Source: a candidate division WWE3 bacterium (GTDB lineage Bacteria > Patescibacteriota > WWE3 > UBA101185 > UBA10185). From it: 64,000 bases of DNA. Each line of letters opens with the position of its first letter. Positions within the stretch are counted from its first letter, which is position 1. Both the position numbers and the translations under genes were made by a program. The notes beneath the pieces are model-generated. The model was given only the letters and a program-made list of their open reading frames with translations. It searched no databases and was not told the origin of the DNA. Shown piece by piece: positions 9,196 through 55,939 of this stretch. The stretch is from assembly GCA_014729135.1 (NCBI GenBank), contig WJKK01000001.1, positions 455,599 to 519,598 on the forward strand, written 5' to 3'.

Positions 9196-9881
9196 TAAAT
9201 AAGTTGCACAAATCTAAACTTTTAGGGACTATCTTTCATACACTCGATTATTGTTTACAAAAAGAGCTTGGTGATTGTAGGAGTGCTTTAGATTTAGGAT
9301 GTGGCCCCAATTCCCCTATTACTAAGTGTGTAAATATTGAACATTCTGTAGGCGTTGAGCTTTTCAAGCCTTATCTTAAAGAGGCTAGGGAAAATAGGAC
9401 ACATGATGAGTTCATTGAAGGAGATATTTTAGAGTTAGATTTTGAAGAGAATTCTTTTGATGCAGTTATTTTAATTGATGTTTTGGAGCATTTAAATAAA
9501 TCTTCCGGAAAGGCTGTTTTAGAGAGAGCCAAGAAGTGGGCTAAGAAGAAAGTGGTCGTAACTACGCCTAATGGTTTTATTGAGCAGGCTCCCGTGGATG
9601 AAAATCCCCATCAAGCGCATAAATCCGGTTGGAATTATAATGATATGCTTTCCTTAGGTTTTGAGGTTTATGGGTTGGCTGGGTTAAAATATTTGAGAAG
9701 AGCTAAAGAGGAGGATGACTCCATGGATGATAATTTACTTGTTTCTATAAAATATAAACCCAAGTTTTTCTGGTTTGGGATTGCTACTTTTAGTCAGATT
9801 TTTACTTATTTCTTTCCAGAACATGCTTTCGAGCTGTTTTGTGTTAAACATGACAATTTCAGTGGTAATACCTCTCCATAA
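9180..9881 (+). CDS. class I SAM-dependent methyltransferase (module A, paralog of 18520-19188)
   Basis: Motif I 'ALDLGCGPNSP' and post-I/II 'AVILIDVLEHL'. Confidence 0.8.
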   Translation: MLKSVINKLHKSKLLGTIFHTLDYCLQKELGDCRSALDLGCGPNSPITKCVNIEHSVGVELFKPYLKEARENRTHDEFIEGDILELDFEENSFDAVILIDVLEHLNKSSGKAVLERAKKWAKKKVVVTTPNGFIEQAPVDENPHQAHKSGWNYNDMLSLGFEVYGLAGLKYLRRAKEEDDSMDDNLLVSIKYKPKFFWFGIATFSQIFTYFFPEHAFELFCVKHDNFSGNTSP

Positions 9882-10809
9882 TGGTTCAACTACCATAATT
9901 GAAACTCTAAAAAGTTTGGAGTCTCATATAGGTTTGGTTGATGAGGTCTTTATTATGGAAAATGGATCTACTGATAACTCTCTGCAGCTTGTCCAAGATT
10001 ATGTGGATAGGAGTACCCACGGAAAGTATGTTCTATTCTCTACCTCCACTTCGCTTGGATTGTCTGGGGCATACAACAAGGGTATAGAAATGTCATCTGG
10101 TGATTTAATCATTACTCTTCATCAGGATGTCCTCCTAAAGGATTATGCAGTAGCCTCTTTGTTAGAACCTTTTTTTTCTGCAGAGAAAGGCGTTGTAGCT
10201 ACAAGTCATTGTGTTGAACATCCTAGCTTTGTATGGCGTGCATATCCTTTTTGGCAGAGATGCTTGTTCTCACGGCTTCTTGGCAAGACTTACTGTGGTT
10301 TGGACGGGAAGTTTGACTGTTTTTCCAGGGCTGCCCTTTATGAGGTGGGATTGTTTGATTCATTAAGGTTTAGGACTGCAGGTGAGGACGGGGATATAAG
10401 AAAGCGTTTATTAAAGAAAGGTAGAATTTCAAAAACGGAAAGCTTGATAATTCATTTACATGCCGTATCTGATAAATTCTCCATTTGGGATTACTTTTAC
10501 AAACATATGCAGTATAGTGAAGCCCAGGGTGTGCTTTTAAGGAAACACGGTATTGATAGCATCCAGAATTTTCTAAAGTCTTTTTTCAGAGAAGTTCTAG
10601 CTGTAGGTGTTCTTTTTCCCTATGTGCGCCTCATTTTTCTCCCTTTAACTCTTTTTTACGCTATTTGGTATTGTAAGAACAGCATTATTCACTGTGATAA
10701 AGAAGACCTCGCTAAATTACTTCTGATAGTTCCTGTAAATGTAGTGTTATTGTACGTCAGTTTTTTTTGTTCGCTAAAGGGATTTTTGTTAAAGAGACAG
10801 CGATTTTAG
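9850..10809 (+). CDS. GT2 glycosyltransferase (module A, paralog of 19190-20149)
   Basis: Probable start at ATG 9850 ('MTISVVIPLHNG'), inside the 3' end of the MTase gene. The track ORF starts at 9775. 'CVEHPSFVWRAYPFWQRCLFSRLLGKTYCGLDGKFD' is conserved with its paralog. Confidence 0.75.
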   Translation: MTISVVIPLHNGSTTIIETLKSLESHIGLVDEVFIMENGSTDNSLQLVQDYVDRSTHGKYVLFSTSTSLGLSGAYNKGIEMSSGDLIITLHQDVLLKDYAVASLLEPFFSAEKGVVATSHCVEHPSFVWRAYPFWQRCLFSRLLGKTYCGLDGKFDCFSRAALYEVGLFDSLRFRTAGEDGDIRKRLLKKGRISKTESLIIHLHAVSDKFSIWDYFYKHMQYSEAQGVLLRKHGIDSIQNFLKSFFREVLAVGVLFPYVRLIFLPLTLFYAIWYCKNSIIHCDKEDLAKLLLIVPVNVVLLYVSFFCSLKGFLLKRQRF

Positions 10810-18530: not shown

Positions 18531-19188
18531 GTCTCTTTATCAAAATGCATTTTTAGAAAGAATCTTTAAGACACATTTGTACTTATTGAAAAGGGAATTG
18601 GCAGAAATGAATAGTGTTTTAGATTTGGGTTGTGGTCCCAATTCTCCATTGCAAAATTGCCCCGGTATTCAGTATAGTCTAGGTGTTGATGCTTTTTCCC
18701 CCTATTTAGAAAGGAGCAGGGAAAAAAATATTCACAACGATTATCTTTTGCAGAACATTAAAGATTTGAAATTTGATGAGAATAGTTTCGAGGCTGTGTT
18801 GTTATTGGATGTGTTAGAGCACTTACCCAAGGAAGAAGGCTTAGCTATGTTGGGAAAAGCTCAGAGGTGGGCTAAGAATAAAGTTATAGTAAGTACCCCT
18901 AATGGTTTTATTAAGCAGCCTTCCGTAGACAAAAATCCCCTACAGAAACATCTTTCCGGCTGGACTGTAAAGGATTTTAAGAATCTGGGTTTTAGTGTGC
19001 GGGGCTTGGCTGGTTTAAGGTTCCTTAGAAAAGCAAAGGAAGAGGGGGATTCAATGGATGATGATATTCTGGTTTCCATGAAGTACAAACCCCGCCTATT
19101 TTGGTTTTTTATAGCCGTGCTAAGTCAAACAATTACTTACTTTTGGCCAAAGAAAGCGTTTGGGCTTTTTTGCGTGAAAGACTTGTGA
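18520..19188 (+). CDS. class I SAM-dependent methyltransferase (module B)
   Basis: 'VLDLGCGPNSP' and 'AVLLLDVLEHL'. The C-terminus 'RRAKEEGDSMDDDILVSMKYKPRLFWF' is near-identical to 'RRAKEEDDSMDDNLLVSIKYKPKFFWF' of 9180-9881. Confidence 0.8.
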   Translation: MKIKSLYQNAFLERIFKTHLYLLKRELAEMNSVLDLGCGPNSPLQNCPGIQYSLGVDAFSPYLERSREKNIHNDYLLQNIKDLKFDENSFEAVLLLDVLEHLPKEEGLAMLGKAQRWAKNKVIVSTPNGFIKQPSVDKNPLQKHLSGWTVKDFKNLGFSVRGLAGLRFLRKAKEEGDSMDDDILVSMKYKPRLFWFFIAVLSQTITYFWPKKAFGLFCVKDL

Positions 19189-19189
19189 A

Positions 19190-20149
19190 ATGGATTCGAT
19201 AAGTGTTGTAATACCTGTTTATAATTCTGCTAGCACCCTAAAACGTACTTTGGGTTGTTTGCTTGATGCATCCCGTTTTATAGACGAGGTTTACATAGTA
19301 GATGATGCTTCTAATGATGATTCAGTAGAAATTGTTAAACAGTTTATCGAGAACCTTTCTTCCAAAATGCGAACTAAGTTTAATTTTATAACCCACGGTA
19401 AAAACCTTGGTTTGGCAGGGACCTACAATGATGGTTTAAGGAGATGTAAGGGGGATATCATTATTACCATTCATTCTGATATTATTTTTGGCTCTGAGGA
19501 AATACCCAAGCTTTTGAAACCTTTTAGCAGTGCTGATGTTGTTGCTTCCTGTCATTGTGTTAAACATCCTCTTAAAACTTGGAAAACTTACACCTTCTGG
19601 CAGAAATGCTTATTTTCACGCCTTTTGGGAAGAACTTCCTGTGGTTTAGATGGGAAATTTGATGCCTACCGTAGAAAGGCCCTGGAGCAGGTTGGTTATT
19701 TTGACGACAACCATTTTTATAGAGCAGGGGAGGATGGTGATTTACGTGAGAAGCTCTCTAGAATTGGAAAAATCGAAAAATCAGGAGCTGTCATAGTTCA
19801 TATTCATAATCAGAGCTCTAATTTTTCCTTGGAGGATTATATTTACAAACATGCTCAGTATGCAGAGGCCTTTGGTGTTTTATTAAGAAGACATGGAATA
19901 ACTAATTTCCCACGTTTTATTAGGACTCATTTTAGAGAGTTGATTTTTATTGCCTTATTAGTACCTTTTATAAGAATATTTGGAGCGTTTATTGCCTTGT
20001 CCTTTGCTTTTTTCTATACCAAAGCTGTTTTTATCTCCGAATTTCCGGATAGACGTTTGTTTTATCTTCCTTTAGTAAATTTGTTTCTTTTACCCATTTC
20101 CTTTATTTTTAGTCTAAAGGGATTTATACATGGTCAACAAACAGTTTGA
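19190..20149 (+). CDS. GT2 glycosyltransferase (module B)
   Basis: 'ISVVIPVYNSASTLKRTL' and 'CHCVKHPLKTWKTYTFWQKCLFSRLLGRTSCGLDGKFD'. Confidence 0.75.
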   Translation: MDSISVVIPVYNSASTLKRTLGCLLDASRFIDEVYIVDDASNDDSVEIVKQFIENLSSKMRTKFNFITHGKNLGLAGTYNDGLRRCKGDIIITIHSDIIFGSEEIPKLLKPFSSADVVASCHCVKHPLKTWKTYTFWQKCLFSRLLGRTSCGLDGKFDAYRRKALEQVGYFDDNHFYRAGEDGDLREKLSRIGKIEKSGAVIVHIHNQSSNFSLEDYIYKHAQYAEAFGVLLRRHGITNFPRFIRTHFRELIFIALLVPFIRIFGAFIALSFAFFYTKAVFISEFPDRRLFYLPLVNLFLLPISFIFSLKGFIHGQQTV

Positions 20150-38782: not shown

Positions 38783-39109
38783 ATGTACATGCCTAAGCAA
38801 CTGTCGTTTGTGCGCCCGTTCCGTGTCCGTTCTGGTGCAATAGGTGATCAGCTTTGGGAAATCCTGTATGAACTTGGTGTTCAGGATGGTGACGCAACCT
38901 TTACTGACCCCGAGGTTGAATTCGTGAGTAACCTACACGCCAACACGGCTCCCGGTGCTGAAATAGTCCTTATTACGGTGGCGGAACTATGGGAGGAGGC
39001 CTATCTTTTTCGCCGCAAAGTGGACTACCTCTATCGTGTTGATGTTGAGGGTCGCAAGCTAGCACTTCTTAAACGTCAGCTCCTTCGTATCCTTACTCAA
39101 CGCGATTAA
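38783..39109 (+). CDS. hypothetical 108-aa protein on a locally GC-richer segment
   Basis: Strong SD (AAAGGAGGTGAG-ATG). ~50% GC against ~40% surroundings. No recognisable domain. Confidence 0.45.
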   Translation: MYMPKQLSFVRPFRVRSGAIGDQLWEILYELGVQDGDATFTDPEVEFVSNLHANTAPGAEIVLITVAELWEEAYLFRRKVDYLYRVDVEGRKLALLKRQLLRILTQRD

Positions 39110-39352
39110 CGTTTTTATGGGGAGGCATCTCTGCAGCGGATGTCTCCCTATCCTCTGGTTAGATTGTAAATCAAGGTAAACTTCAGATTTCATACATATT
39201 CGACCCGTATATAATGGCAAAATCCTCATCTAATAAAAAAGTGCCCGTTTTTGAGTCAGATTTGATCCCAAATTTGGAGTAAATATTCATTTCGAGCGAA
39301 GCGAAACTGAACGAAAAACGAGTACTCCGAAGACTTTCGGGTTTTTTCTGTG

Positions 39353-39381
39353 TTGACATTGGATACTCTATGGTGGAATAT
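39353..39381 (+). promoter_or_regulatory. candidate sigma70-type promoter for mraZ: TTGACA (39353-39358), 17 nt, GAATAT
   Basis: Consensus -35 with correct spacing to an A/T hexamer, ~70 nt upstream of the mraZ ATG. Preceded by a weak hairpin+U6 (39327-39347). Confidence 0.35.
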
Positions 39382-39452
39382 AGATACAGATTGGTGATCA
39401 ATGGTGAAAAAGGACAGTCCTTTAAGAGGACTGTCCCTCCAGAAAAACGGGT

Positions 39453-48211: not shown

Positions 48212-48359
48212 GGGGATCTTCTTTCTAAGGTGACAAACCCCTTTTCGTTTCCACGACTTCGCTTCGCTCCGAAATGTCACCGAAAAGGGGCCCATCACCT
48301 TATACGTATTTTCCAAATCATTGCAGGAAAAACCCACCTTGTATATACTTTAGTTATAT

Positions 48360-50628
48360 GAATAAATCCACTGCCCACATTCTCAAATTTTCCGATATTA
48401 GAAAAGCCGACCTTCCCTATGTTGGAGGTAAAGGGGCAAACCTTGGTGAGATGTTTGCTGCAGGCATTCCCGTTCCTGATGGTTTTGTAGTTACAGCAAA
48501 AGCTTATTTTGATTTTCTGGATACCACTTCTCTTAGACAAAAGATTCTCACAGAACTATCCGGTTTAAATACAGATGACTCTAATGCTCTATCTCAGGCG
48601 TCTAAAAATATAAAAACTGCAATTTTAGCAGCAAAAATGCCTGATTCTCTAAAAGAAGAAATCCGCAAAGCCTATCATCATCTTTCAGGAGATCACAATG
48701 CTTTGGTAGCTGTTAGATCCTCCGCTACGGCTGAAGACCTTCCGGATGCCTCGTTTGCAGGTCAACAGGAGACCTATCTAAATATTGAAGGAACTGAGGA
48801 TGTTGTTGAACATGTGCAAAAATGTTGGGCATCCCTTTTTGAGGCTCGGGCAATTTTTTACCGTACGGAAAATGGATTTGATCATCTTAAGGTTGGCATA
48901 GCAGTTCCGGTGCAGCTAATGGTTCAGTCGGAAGTTTCCGGAATTATGTTTACGGTTAATCCGCTGACTAACAATCGTGACGAGGTCTCTGTGGAGGCTG
49001 CTTTTGGGTTAGGTCAGCCCATTGTTTCCGGAGAGGTCACGCCGGATCAATTCATAGTTGACAAAGAATCCGGTGAAATAAAGTCAAAACATCTCTCCTT
49101 GCAGAAGTGGCAGCTGACTCAAGCCGGTAAAACTCCTATAGCAAAGGCACATCAAAAGGTTCAGAAGCTGGATGATTCTCATGTGAAGGAGCTTGCTCAA
49201 CTGGGTGTGAAAATTGAAGATCATTATGGGCGTCCTCAGGATATCGAGTGGGCTATGGAGGGTGGAGAGCTTTTAATAGTGCAGTCGCGTCCGGTTACAA
49301 CTTTGAAGCGCAAAAAAGAGGAGGAGGTTACAGTAGTAAATCCTGATGAAGCTGCAAAGTTTATTCTGGAGGGTTTGGGGGCTTCTCCGGGAGTAGCTTC
49401 AGGCCCGGTTAAAGTGATAAAGGATGCTTCCGAAATTTCCAAAGTTAAAAAAGGTGATGTTTTGGTTGCGGTTATGACTAATCCGGATTTTGTGCCGGCA
49501 ATGCGTAGAGCCTGTGCAATTTTAACGGATGAGGGTGGGCGAACTTCTCATGCTGCTATTGTTAGTCGCGAGCTTGGAATTCCCGCTATAGTTGGCTCTC
49601 AACAGGCTACTTCTATGCTAAGTCCCGGTGAGGTTATAACGGTGGATGGCTCCAATGGGAAGGTTTATTCAGATGATGTTACCAAAGTAGAAAAGGTGGA
49701 AGTTGAGGATATTGATTATGAAAGTCTAAAGACGGCTACAAAGATTTATATGAACTTGGCAGAGCCTGATTTGGCTGCGGAAATGGCTGAAAAAAATGTG
49801 GATGGTGTGGGGCTTTTGCGCGCGGAGTTTATGATTGCTCAAATTGGGAAGCATCCACGAAAGTTTATTAAGGAGGGTAAGCAGCAGGAGTTTATTGATG
49901 CATTAACGGAGGGTCTTACTCGATTTGCCGAAGCTTTTGATCCTCGTCCTGTGGTCTACAGATTTACGGACTTTCGAACTAATGAATATGCTAATTTGGA
50001 GGGCGGTCAGGAGTTTGAAAAAGATGAGCCTAATCCAATGATTGGCTTTAGAGGAGTTAGCCGTTACATAGAAGATGACGATGTTTTTGAGTTGGAACTT
50101 GAGGCAATTAAGAAGGTTCGCAATAAGTTGGGGCATAAGAATTTGCATGTGATGTACCCTTTTGTACGTACAGTGGATCAGCTTAAAGAAGTTAAAAAGA
50201 TTACAGCTGCTTCCGGTTTACAGCGAGGTCCCTCTTTTAAGGTCTGGATGATGGTGGAGATTCCCTCTAACGTAATTTTGCTGGATGACTTCATTGACGT
50301 GGGAATTGATGGCGTTTCTGTTGGTACCAATGATTTGACGATGCTTACTTTGGGAGTTGATAGGGATAATGAGCGTGTTGCTAACGTTTATAGCGAGATG
50401 AATCCGGCGGTTTTGCAGAGTTTGGAAAAAATTGTTAAGACTTGTAGAAAACGTAAAGTTACATGTTCGATTTGTGGTCAGGCGCCCTCTGTTTATCCTG
50501 AATTGGTTAAGATGTTGGCGGATTGGGGAATTACTTCCATTTCGGTGAGTCCCGATGTTTTAAACAAAACACGAAAGATTGTTTATGATGCTGAACATGA
50601 GGTTTTAAAGAAGGCGGGTAAGAAGTAG
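48360..50628 (+). CDS. ppsA: phosphoenolpyruvate synthase (pyruvate, water dikinase); a PPDK-like alternative is not excluded
   Basis: 'YVGGKGANLGEM', phosphohistidine domain 'GGRTSHAAIVSRELGIPAIVG' and PEP-utilizing C-terminus 'CGQAPS'. Start taken at ATG 48360; the track ORF opens at 48274. Confidence 0.75.
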
Positions 50629-55333: not shown

Positions 55334-55939
55334 TCAAGAGTTTTGTTTTTTTAGGACATTTTCAAAGCTTATATTCAGATGTCGTTGTATAAAACGGATG
55401 TCCTCGGTATTGGTTGTTATTTGTCTGTGATTTGCAAAGTAGACTCTGGTTAAGTCTTTAATATCGTCCCTTATTCTTCTTTCTGTGGATTCGATCAGGG
55501 TTCTTAATGTTTTGTGATCTTGGAAGCGCTCGTCACTTGTTTTATAGTCAATCTCTTTAATTTCCTCCTTAAGATTTTTCTCCATGTTTTTCAGGTCATT
55601 TTCTACTTGTTTTAATTTATTTGCCAGCTTAGTCTGTTTTCCTTTAACTGACTTTAGGTCTGTTTTGACGCCTTTGATATCCGTTTTTAGGTCTGTTTTA
55701 ACGCCTATGATGTCCTCTTTTAAGTTTGCTTTAACGGCTTTGATATCCTCTTTCAGGTTTGTTTTAACACCTATGATATCCTCTTTTAGATCTGTTCTAA
55801 CGCTTTTGATATCCTCTTTTAACTCTTTTCTCAGAGCGTCAATCTTTGTGTTCAACTTAGTATCCAAGTCATTTATAAGGTTTGCTATTTCTTCAATTTG
55901 CATTACTTTAAATTTACCAAAACCCCCTAAACATGTCAA
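55334..55939 (-). CDS. hendecad (11-residue) repeat, K/D/E-rich coiled-coil/amphipathic-helix protein
   Basis: Six or more tandem 11-aa units 'VKTDLKEDIKG' (LKEDIKSVRTD / LKEDIIGVKTN / LKEDIKAVKAN ...). True start is probably Met13 (MQIEEIANL), directly behind TTGACA-17-TAAATT (leaderless). Confidence 0.6.
   Translation of the reverse strand: MTCLGGFGKFKVMQIEEIANLINDLDTKLNTKIDALRKELKEDIKSVRTDLKEDIIGVKTNLKEDIKAVKANLKEDIIGVKTDLKTDIKGVKTDLKSVKGKQTKLANKLKQVENDLKNMEKNLKEEIKEIDYKTSDERFQDHKTLRTLIESTERRIRDDIKDLTRVYFANHRQITTNTEDIRFIQRHLNISFENVLKKQNS
55625..55822. repeat. about six tandem 33-bp DNA repeats (e.g. GTCTGTTTTAACGCCTATGATGTCCTCTTTTAA) encoding the hendecad units
   Basis: Units phased at 55658, 55691, 55724, 55757 and 55790, with a degenerate unit at 55625. 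Confidence 0.75.

Follow-up and report, generated by a model that had tools for sequence, protein, structure and literature searches.

We consider it probable that two intergenic hairpin sites in a WWE3 genome are solitary, mutated relic units of a pan-bacterial hairpin repeat of the Ssn/CGTC-REP type, that they are recent arrivals and that they are likely inactive today. This reading builds on the sequence relationship between the two sites and the repeat family, on the grammar of the family units, on the association of the family with a small gene elsewhere and on the absence of both copies from relatives, all of which were observed directly. Counting against it, the two copies lack the tag and the tail of the family, and their well preserved part is the 18/19-nt core only.

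A core shared by two intergenic spacers

The window (the whole 64-kb stretch of DNA that was analysed) contains the 12-mer GAGCGAAGCGAA exactly at 39294-39305 on the + strand and at 48258-48269 on the - strand, and the identity of the two sites noticed by the initial annotation is thus borne out, with no third match in the window at up to one mismatch. The core common to both sites is CATTTCG[G]AGCGAAGCGAA, 18 or 19 nt long with one indel, and is present at site 1 in the following form:

39288..39305, + strand: exact 18-nt core CATTTCGAGCGAAGCGAA, containing GCGAAGC at 39296-39302

Both copies are intergenic, located 3' of ORFs and solitary, giving a copy number of two in 64 kb. The spacer of site 1 is bordered by a 108-aa ORF on one side and by mraZ/rsmH on the other, that of site 2 by a phosphomannomutase gene and by ppsA, and all of these genes are on the + strand.

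The chance expectation of less than 0.01 that had been given for this repetition is valid only for a 12-mer specified beforehand; as a pair found post hoc, it is at chance level. In a self-comparison of the window, the pair of sites scored 28.2 bits (rank 28), and 71 pairs reached at least this score, compared to 36-71 pairs in first-order Markov shuffles. The likeness of the flanks outside the core was not significant, since it was reached by 392 of 2000 shuffles on the left and 131 of 2000 on the right. A longer, WWE3-specific palindromic element shared by both sites (with outer CCCnTTTTnG/CGAAAA stems) was rejected on the same ground, and a metagenome scan for the core followed by N4-11 and ACGAAAA gave no match. 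The repetition within the window is at chance level, and its significance rests on matches outside the window.

Two other repeats of the window are recorded here as separate observations. A tandem repeat with a 33-nt unit (TTTAGGTCTGTTTTAACGCCTTTGATATCCTCT) covers 55653-55821 with 5.1 copies and 82% matches, and several collinear segments of 9282-10316 and 18613-19662, about 9.3 kb apart, are 83-87% identical, which suggests duplicated genes.

A large family of dispersed hairpin repeats

A scan of species-representative bacterial genomes (one per species) with the core retrieved at least 119 loci from many phyla. Among the matches listed are Coriobacteriia, Dialister, Verrucomicrobiota, Planctomycetota, Bacteroidota, Chloroflexota, Acidobacteriota, Desulfobacterota, Alphaproteobacteria and one Patescibacteria genome. 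GT directly precedes the core in 97 of the 122 matches listed, GTCGAGAAATC-like sequence follows 3' in most, and most of the matches listed run on into GCGGAGTCGAGAAATCTC or a shorter form of it. About one in five of the exact core matches listed has no family flanks, and many of these are located in ORFs; this is approximately the number expected by chance. The hairpin-repeat family of which the core is part is very large and dispersed, with thousands of related units in other bacteria. This supports the small repeat family proposed in the initial annotation, and the lack of further copies, which that annotation had named as counting against it, does not hold.

The grammar of the family was derived from 121 independent units of the listed core loci and from 225 units of loci chosen by protein (see below). 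A canonical unit consists of an unpaired (C/T)GTC tag, an eight-position stem around a loop built from CGAAG pentamers, and a C-initial tail. T or C precedes GTC in 117 of the 121 independent units, and the tails in the listed core loci are CTC (34), CCA (26), CTT (16) and CTA (15). The stem reads A-NNNN-G-A-G/C and pairs with C/G-G-A-N'N'N'N'-T, with a central tandem G.A/A.G; one type of unit is ATTTCGAG/ATTGCGAG. One variable stem position forms a Watson-Crick pair in 102 of 121 units (T-A 50, G-C 30, C-G 22), and the pair at position 8, which closes the tandem G.A, does so in 131 of 137. The stem variants of the 225 units in the protein-selected loci are compensatory as well (ATTCC 49, ATTCT 48, ATTTC 31, ATCCT 20, ATTGC 19, ACCCT 17, ATCCC 13 and ACCCC 7). 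By nearest-neighbour folding, one canonical unit taken singly is not predicted to form a stable hairpin (z +1.6), and therefore covariation is the sole basis of the stem. The loop comprises one to three CGAAG-like pentamers and the unit lengths peak at 28, 34 and 39 nt, from which it follows that the loop grows in steps of five. What had been read as "(GCGAA)2" is accounted for by these loops, that is, by a variable number of CGAAG pentamers rather than by a fixed duplication.

Canonical copies are extragenic, with 67% outside long ORFs compared to 12% of random positions. Units often pair up as inverted heterodimers (median length 106 nt), and 51 dimers were found. Wobble pairs in the dimers had no strand bias (77 versus 64), and therefore a role in DNA and a role in RNA are not told apart by this measure.

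Two further arrangements were seen among these loci. In a Patescibacteria metagenome-assembled genome (L045, 4620-4740) and in Coriobacteriia (L001, L012, L018, L042, L085, L109), two to four repeats of the tag end and some 20 nt, with a C/G-rich spacer, adjoin a full unit, as in AAGCTTCAGTCGAGATGACAAAGAGAGGGGG x4; these partial-unit arrays look like repeated abortive copying at the tag end. In L004 (Dialister) and L070, L080 and L082 (Paludibacteraceae), an untagged 18-mer lies within a different element; the 60 nt upstream of the 18-mer are almost the same in a Firmicute and a Bacteroidota genome, and the element is probably mobile and shared by gut bacteria.

The two copies in the window

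Both sites align to canonical units over their full length and pentamer for pentamer. Site 1 was read against the canonical long unit, TGTC-ATTTCGAG-CGAAG-CGAAG-CGGAG-T-CGAGAAAT-CTC, and site 2 against canonical units of loci L003 and L072, of the form TGTC-ATTTCGAG-CGAAG-CGAAG-T-CGAGAAAT-CTC:

39285..39322, + strand: site 1, full-length decayed long-type repeat unit, ATTC-ATTTCGAG-CGAAG-CGAAA-CTGAA-CGAAAAAC-GAG
39285-39288, + strand: tag-equivalent ATTC of site 1 (canonical TGTC/CGTC)
39289-39296, + strand: 5' stem ATTTCGAG of site 1
39297-39301, 39302-39306 and 39307-39311, + strand: loop pentamers CGAAG, CGAAA and CTGAA of site 1
39312-39319, + strand: 3' stem CGAAAAAC of site 1 (canonical CGAGAAAT)
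39320-39322, + strand: tail GAG of site 1
39240..39326, no strand assigned: imperfect 87-nt palindrome around site 1, arms 39240-39262 and 39304-39326, 74% complementary
48279-48244, - strand: site 2, full-length decayed mid-length repeat unit, TGAC-ATTTCGGAG-CGAAG-CGAAG-T-CGTGGAAAC-GAA
48279-48276, - strand: tag-equivalent TGAC of site 2
48275-48267, - strand: 5' stem ATTTCGGAG of site 2, with one inserted G
48266-48256, - strand: loop CGAAG-CGAAG-T of site 2, the same as in the canonical unit
48255-48247, - strand: 3' stem CGTGGAAAC of site 2 (canonical CGAGAAAT)
48246-48244, - strand: tail GAA of site 2
48226..48302, no strand assigned: 77-nt palindrome with the site 2 unit at its apex, arms TAAGGTGACAAACCCCTTTTCG and CGAAAAGGGGCCCATCACCTTA

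The 5' halves of the stems are intact at site 1 (ATTTCGAG) and carry one insertion at site 2 (ATTTCGGAG), and the 3' halves match at six of eight positions. Tag, 3' stem and tail are changed at site 1, mainly from G to A or T, and the same three parts differ from the canonical unit at site 2. Searches of the window with the family profiles (nhmmer) gave E values of 2e-6 and 9e-5 for site 1 and 1.1e-4 and 1.8e-3 for site 2; with the profile built from independent copies (9e-5 and 1.8e-3), the two sites were the only matches in 128 kb, both strands counted.

The motif had been described as displayed in hairpin loops. Enclosing palindromes do exist at both sites, but the motif itself is the 5' stem plus the loop of a repeat unit. 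At site 1, the stem GGAGTA/TACTCC is present at 39276-39281 and 39323-39328 and extends to nine pairs; only its annotated end was one base off. The 87-nt palindrome has a DNA fold with z -2.0, and the RNA fold of the 83-nt region is no stabler than that of shuffles (z +0.39). The hairpin of site 2 is longer than had been claimed: its 22-nt arms (48226-48247 and 48281-48302) are 82% complementary, and the DNA fold of -20.4 kcal/mol was reached by 0 of 200 shuffles (z -5.4).

With these data, the simplest alternative can be weighed, namely that unrelated intergenic hairpins share an 18-nt purine-rich stretch by chance and have no tie to the family. The chance level of the pair within the window and the insignificant flank likeness would fit such a coincidence, as would the missing tag in both copies and the fifth or so of listed exact matches that have no family flanks. 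However, the 18-mer is the exact core of a family that is defined independently by flanks, covariation and gene association, the family profiles match just these two places, and the alignments span the entire units. We therefore regard a chance resemblance as very unlikely.

Linkage to small GIY-YIG genes

Clustering of ORFs of at least 100 aa from the 119 listed loci revealed no recurrent neighbour and no recurrent transposase-like ORF. With this cut-off, GIY-YIG genes of 95 aa are missed; a motif search and jackhmmer brought them to light. In two loci, units surround small GIY-YIG ORFs (Pfam PF01541, E 1.9e-13): the first locus is from Bradyrhizobium (L066), with four dimers around the ORF, and the second from Phycisphaerae (L023), with the exact 18-mer upstream of the gene. 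Downstream of the gene in L023, at about 150-260, we observed an inverted partner unit with the stem ACCCCGAG/CGAGGGGT; compared to the upstream unit (ATTTCGAG/CGAGAAAT), it has three compensatory pair changes within one gene-flanking pair.

The association was also found when the protein was the starting point. Eighty metagenomic loci, fetched purely by similarity to the two GIY-YIG proteins (44% identical to each other), contained 225 tagged units compared to 6-14 in shuffles, and 165 of these units were within 150 nt of the GIY-YIG gene. Units within 300 nt were present upstream in 60 of the 80 loci, downstream in 61 and on both sides in 52. The 12-mer GAGCGAAGCGAA is present in 19 of the 225 gene-flanking units, and GCGAAGC occurs in 37 of them as well as in the loop of both window units. 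In the 64-kb window and in the loci of the relatives, jackhmmer found no GIY-YIG ORF, and a generic search for tagged units was negative both for the window and for 62 kb of relatives.

Comparison with known hairpin repeats

The closest descriptions are those of the CGTC-tagged REP superfamily and of the targets of Ssn nucleases. Neisseria dRS3 and Rickettsia RPE-4/RPE-6 are counted among the superfamily (Di Nocera, De Gregorio, Rocco 2013, BMC Genomics 14:522), whose units are characterized in the text by a CGTC/TGTC tag, stems of 8-9 bp starting with AT, a short tail and a mostly dimeric arrangement, with members in several phyla and no dedicated transposase (PMC3733652). They are multi-copy and extragenic, as a rule located 3' of ORFs. 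The wider family found here matches this text description: its units have an unpaired CGTC/TGTC tag, a stem of about 8 bp that starts with A-T and a C-initial tail (CCA, CTC), and they are extragenic, mostly inverted dimers, often heterodimers, with no associated transposase. Furthermore, peptides reported there for intragenic copies (VIPAKAGI and SFLRKQES...RFRGND; PMC3733652) back-translate to GTCATTCC...GGAATC. In contrast to this description, the CGAAG-pentamer loops reach up to 16 nt instead of 4-5 nt, the stem contains a tandem G.A, and the distribution of the family is much wider than the five phyla listed there. The window copies deviate further, being solitary and devoid of tag and tail. 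Measured against the same description, they have ATTC (site 1) and TGAC (site 2) in place of the tag (CGTC, TGTC/CCTC), loops of 15 and 11 nt in place of 4-5 nt, and GAG and GAA in place of the 3-nt tail with the consensus CCA.

Ssn proteins are site-specific single-strand DNA endonucleases (Chenal et al. 2025, Nat Commun 16:2388; PMC11893778). The CGTC-tagged NTS hairpin has to be single-stranded DNA for SsnA, a single-domain GIY-YIG protein of 94 aa, to bind and cut it; NTS, the Neisseria member, has the sequence CGTCATTCCCGCGMAVGCGGGAATCYRG, and the gene is typically flanked by the repeats in the layout NTS-ssnA-NTS (PMC11893778). For cleavage, SsnA depends on the 3 nt that precede the palindrome, and for binding on the C directly after it (PMC11893778). 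In the family described here, tagged hairpins likewise flank a single-domain GIY-YIG gene of about 95 aa on both sides (the 52 loci above), and the units have an HGTC tag and a C after the palindrome, the features critical for cleavage and binding (PMC11893778). The window differs from the NTS/Ssn arrangement in having only decayed units and no GIY-YIG gene. The 95-aa GIY-YIG proteins are putative members of the Ssn clade (cd10448), and, given the mutational data of PMC11893778, the altered tag and 3' stem at the window sites predict a loss of cleavage and a weaker binding. The published degenerate pattern for Ssn-related motifs (SRM), HGTCWYN(0-2)YYVSBRHN(0-5)WNVSBRGN(0-2)RNCYNB, matched the NTS control and none of the canonical long, short and alpha-type units, nor either window site; the units thus form a subtype outside the published definition.

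GTAG-tagged REPs and REPINs are mobilised by RAYT tyrosine transposases (HUH Y1). They share with the present family short extragenic palindromic units that are often paired and spread via recognition of a single-stranded hairpin, but the tag and the partner enzyme are different, and the listed loci offered no transposase-like ORF that recurred. The heptamer d(GCGAAGC) is known as an extraordinarily stable DNA mini-hairpin (Hirao; PMC13037366). It is a biophysical motif and not a genetic element, and most family units are without GCGAAGC, so that the mini-hairpin is not a conserved feature of the family. A literature search by DNA strings and encoded peptides returned only papers on this mini-hairpin. 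In BLAST searches of canonical units against annotated plasmids and phages, the main type had no match and the alpha-type unit matched five plasmids, where it is not annotated; viral contigs gave one non-canonical match.

Neighbouring genes and related genomes

The surroundings of the two sites contain the following features:

38783..39109, + strand: orphan 108-aa ORF; the segment up to about 39332 is absent from relatives
39326..39347, + strand: terminator-like hairpin TCCGAAGACTTTCGGG and 3' T run, immediately adjoining site 1
39353..39407, + strand: conserved mraZ promoter region, with -35 TTGACA at 39353-39358 and GGTGG/GGTGA boxes
48321..48360, + strand: conserved ppsA promoter-like boxes and start, with -35 TTGCAG at 48321-48326, -10 TATACT at 48344-48349 and ATG at 48358-48360

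RsmH and phosphomannomutase of the window are 100% identical to NCBI entries on an 864-kb contig of a candidate division WWE3 assembly. Among the relatives available for comparison, the nearest show 69-72% identity in RsmH or 62-63% in phosphomannomutase. At site 1, their glycyl-tRNA synthetase gene is followed directly by mraZ, and both the 108-aa ORF and the motif are absent; they align with the window from about 39333 on, which is 3' of the motif and just 5' of the -35 box TTGACA and the GGTGG/GGTGA boxes. From what is known of MraZ, we take the GGTGG/GGTGA boxes to be MraZ operators. The 108-aa ORF has a GC content of 0.51 compared to 0.40 in the window and has no homologue besides itself among 5.8 billion clustered proteins; a strong ribosome-binding site was also noted. 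At site 2, the phosphomannomutase gene is missing in three relatives. In three others it occupies the same position, and the spacer, although similarly long, has neither palindrome nor motif; only the ppsA promoter boxes and the start codon are conserved. The palindrome at 48226-48302 is absent from six related loci, and the family profiles gave no match in the relatives' loci. Conservation of either site, one of the outcomes considered at the outset, was therefore not found at the same place in any of the six related loci. Judged by these alignments, both window copies are lineage-specific, and since relatives are without them, their arrival in the WWE3 genome would be recent. The relatives also speak against both sites as gene-cassette ends of the integron attC type, since the phosphomannomutase gene stands in the same place without a hairpin; GTTRRRY/RYYYAAC ends were not seen on reading both sites.

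The motif of site 1 had been placed in a 343-nt structured leader of the dcw cluster. This is wrong, because it lies 47 nt upstream of the conserved mraZ -35 box and hence outside the mraZ transcript. A perfect 10-bp hairpin, GGACAGTCCT-ttaag-AGGACTGTCC, was observed at 39412-39436, 3' of the MraZ boxes and ahead of the mraZ start codon; it is part of about 43 nt that relatives L124 and L125 lack and that are a lineage-specific insertion in the mraZ 5' UTR. The longest ppsA ORF begins at ATG 48274, within the palindrome; in the alignment with six relatives, the start is ATG 48358, behind the conserved TTGCAG/TATACT boxes, and ATG 48274 is probably not the true start.

The position of both sites next to promoters brings up a working cis-regulatory site. 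The initial annotation had proposed a protein-binding site with tandem GCGAA half-sites, and in this reading a protein would bind the tandem GCGAA about 45 nt 5' of the -35 boxes of mraZ and ppsA. Indeed, at both sites the distance from the end of the core to a conserved -35 hexamer downstream is 44-47 nt, and the 18-nt core was kept exact as the rest of the unit decayed. However, relatives retain both promoters and have neither site, the motif has opposite orientations at the two sites, and the number of pentamers varies freely across the family. The similar distance to the -35 boxes is explained by the space between gene end and promoter, the sole place where an insertion is tolerated. A regulatory function of this kind is highly improbable.

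The location directly 3' of + strand genes could also point to an element that acts as RNA, either as a 3'-end stabiliser or terminator of the ORF108 and phosphomannomutase transcripts or, at site 1, as part of a small RNA bounded by a TATAAT box (about 39213) and the terminator (39326-39347), with the repeat core co-opted. The motif hairpins themselves do not have the form of an intrinsic terminator; the separate hairpin at 39326-39341, which adjoins site 1, fits an intrinsic terminator (a GC-rich stem-loop and a T run); its 3' half (TTTCGGGTT..) is kept in relatives and its 5' half is lineage-specific. In other bacteria, REPs stabilise the 3' ends of mRNAs, as PMC3733652 summarises. On the other hand, site 2 has no intrinsic terminator and no T run on either strand, its RNA folds better on the untranscribed - strand (z -2.65) than on the + strand (z -1.29), and the RNA fold of site 1, as stated, does not exceed that of shuffles. 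Rfam gave no gathering-score match in the window or in 18 family loci apart from tRNAs, and only chance-level matches at E values up to 10, and the sites are not conserved in relatives. An RNA-level role is thus unlikely.

Model of origin and decay

We favour the relic reading and propose the following course of events. The family unit would fold as a hairpin in single-stranded DNA, and a cognate GIY-YIG nuclease would bind the stem and cut near the tag; cutting may both spread the repeat and mark single-stranded DNA for cleavage. Each window copy would have landed in or beside a palindrome, in the short spacer between the end of a gene and the next promoter. Both copies would then have lost the tag (now ATTC and TGAC) and part of the 3' stem, mostly by changes from G to A or T. 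The interaction with a nuclease, the mode of arrival and the present inactivity are what we infer from the comparisons above. The window copies are most likely no longer substrates of a nuclease. Possibly, they serve at most as passive 3'-end hairpins between transcription units, a role unsupported by conservation.

It is imaginable that decay did not end all function. The exact preservation of 18 nt in two decayed units may not be an accident, and an Ssn-like GIY-YIG protein encoded outside the window may still bind the untagged hairpins without cutting them. The hairpins might then mark gene boundaries and modulate the recombination of incoming single-stranded DNA in a CPR bacterium that depends on DNA uptake. 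In its broader part, this proposal takes the pentamer-loop units as an Ssn specificity clade that spans more than ten phyla and is missed by the SRM definition. Taken jointly, these steps make for an unlikely scenario, and we return to inactive relics as the probable reading.

In sum, the element is of a known kind, to which the window contributes a decayed member from a new lineage. A false lead is removed, as the motif is neither part of an mraZ leader nor a conserved operator. An intergenic motif of a tiny candidate-phylum genome would instead be a fossil of the CGTC-REP/Ssn hairpin system, whose footprint thereby extends to the Patescibacteria. The most useful by-product is the long-loop, tandem-G.A subtype with its tight link to a clade of 95-aa GIY-YIG genes; this subtype is missed by the published search pattern and may be of use in cataloguing Ssn specificities as single-strand DNA tools.
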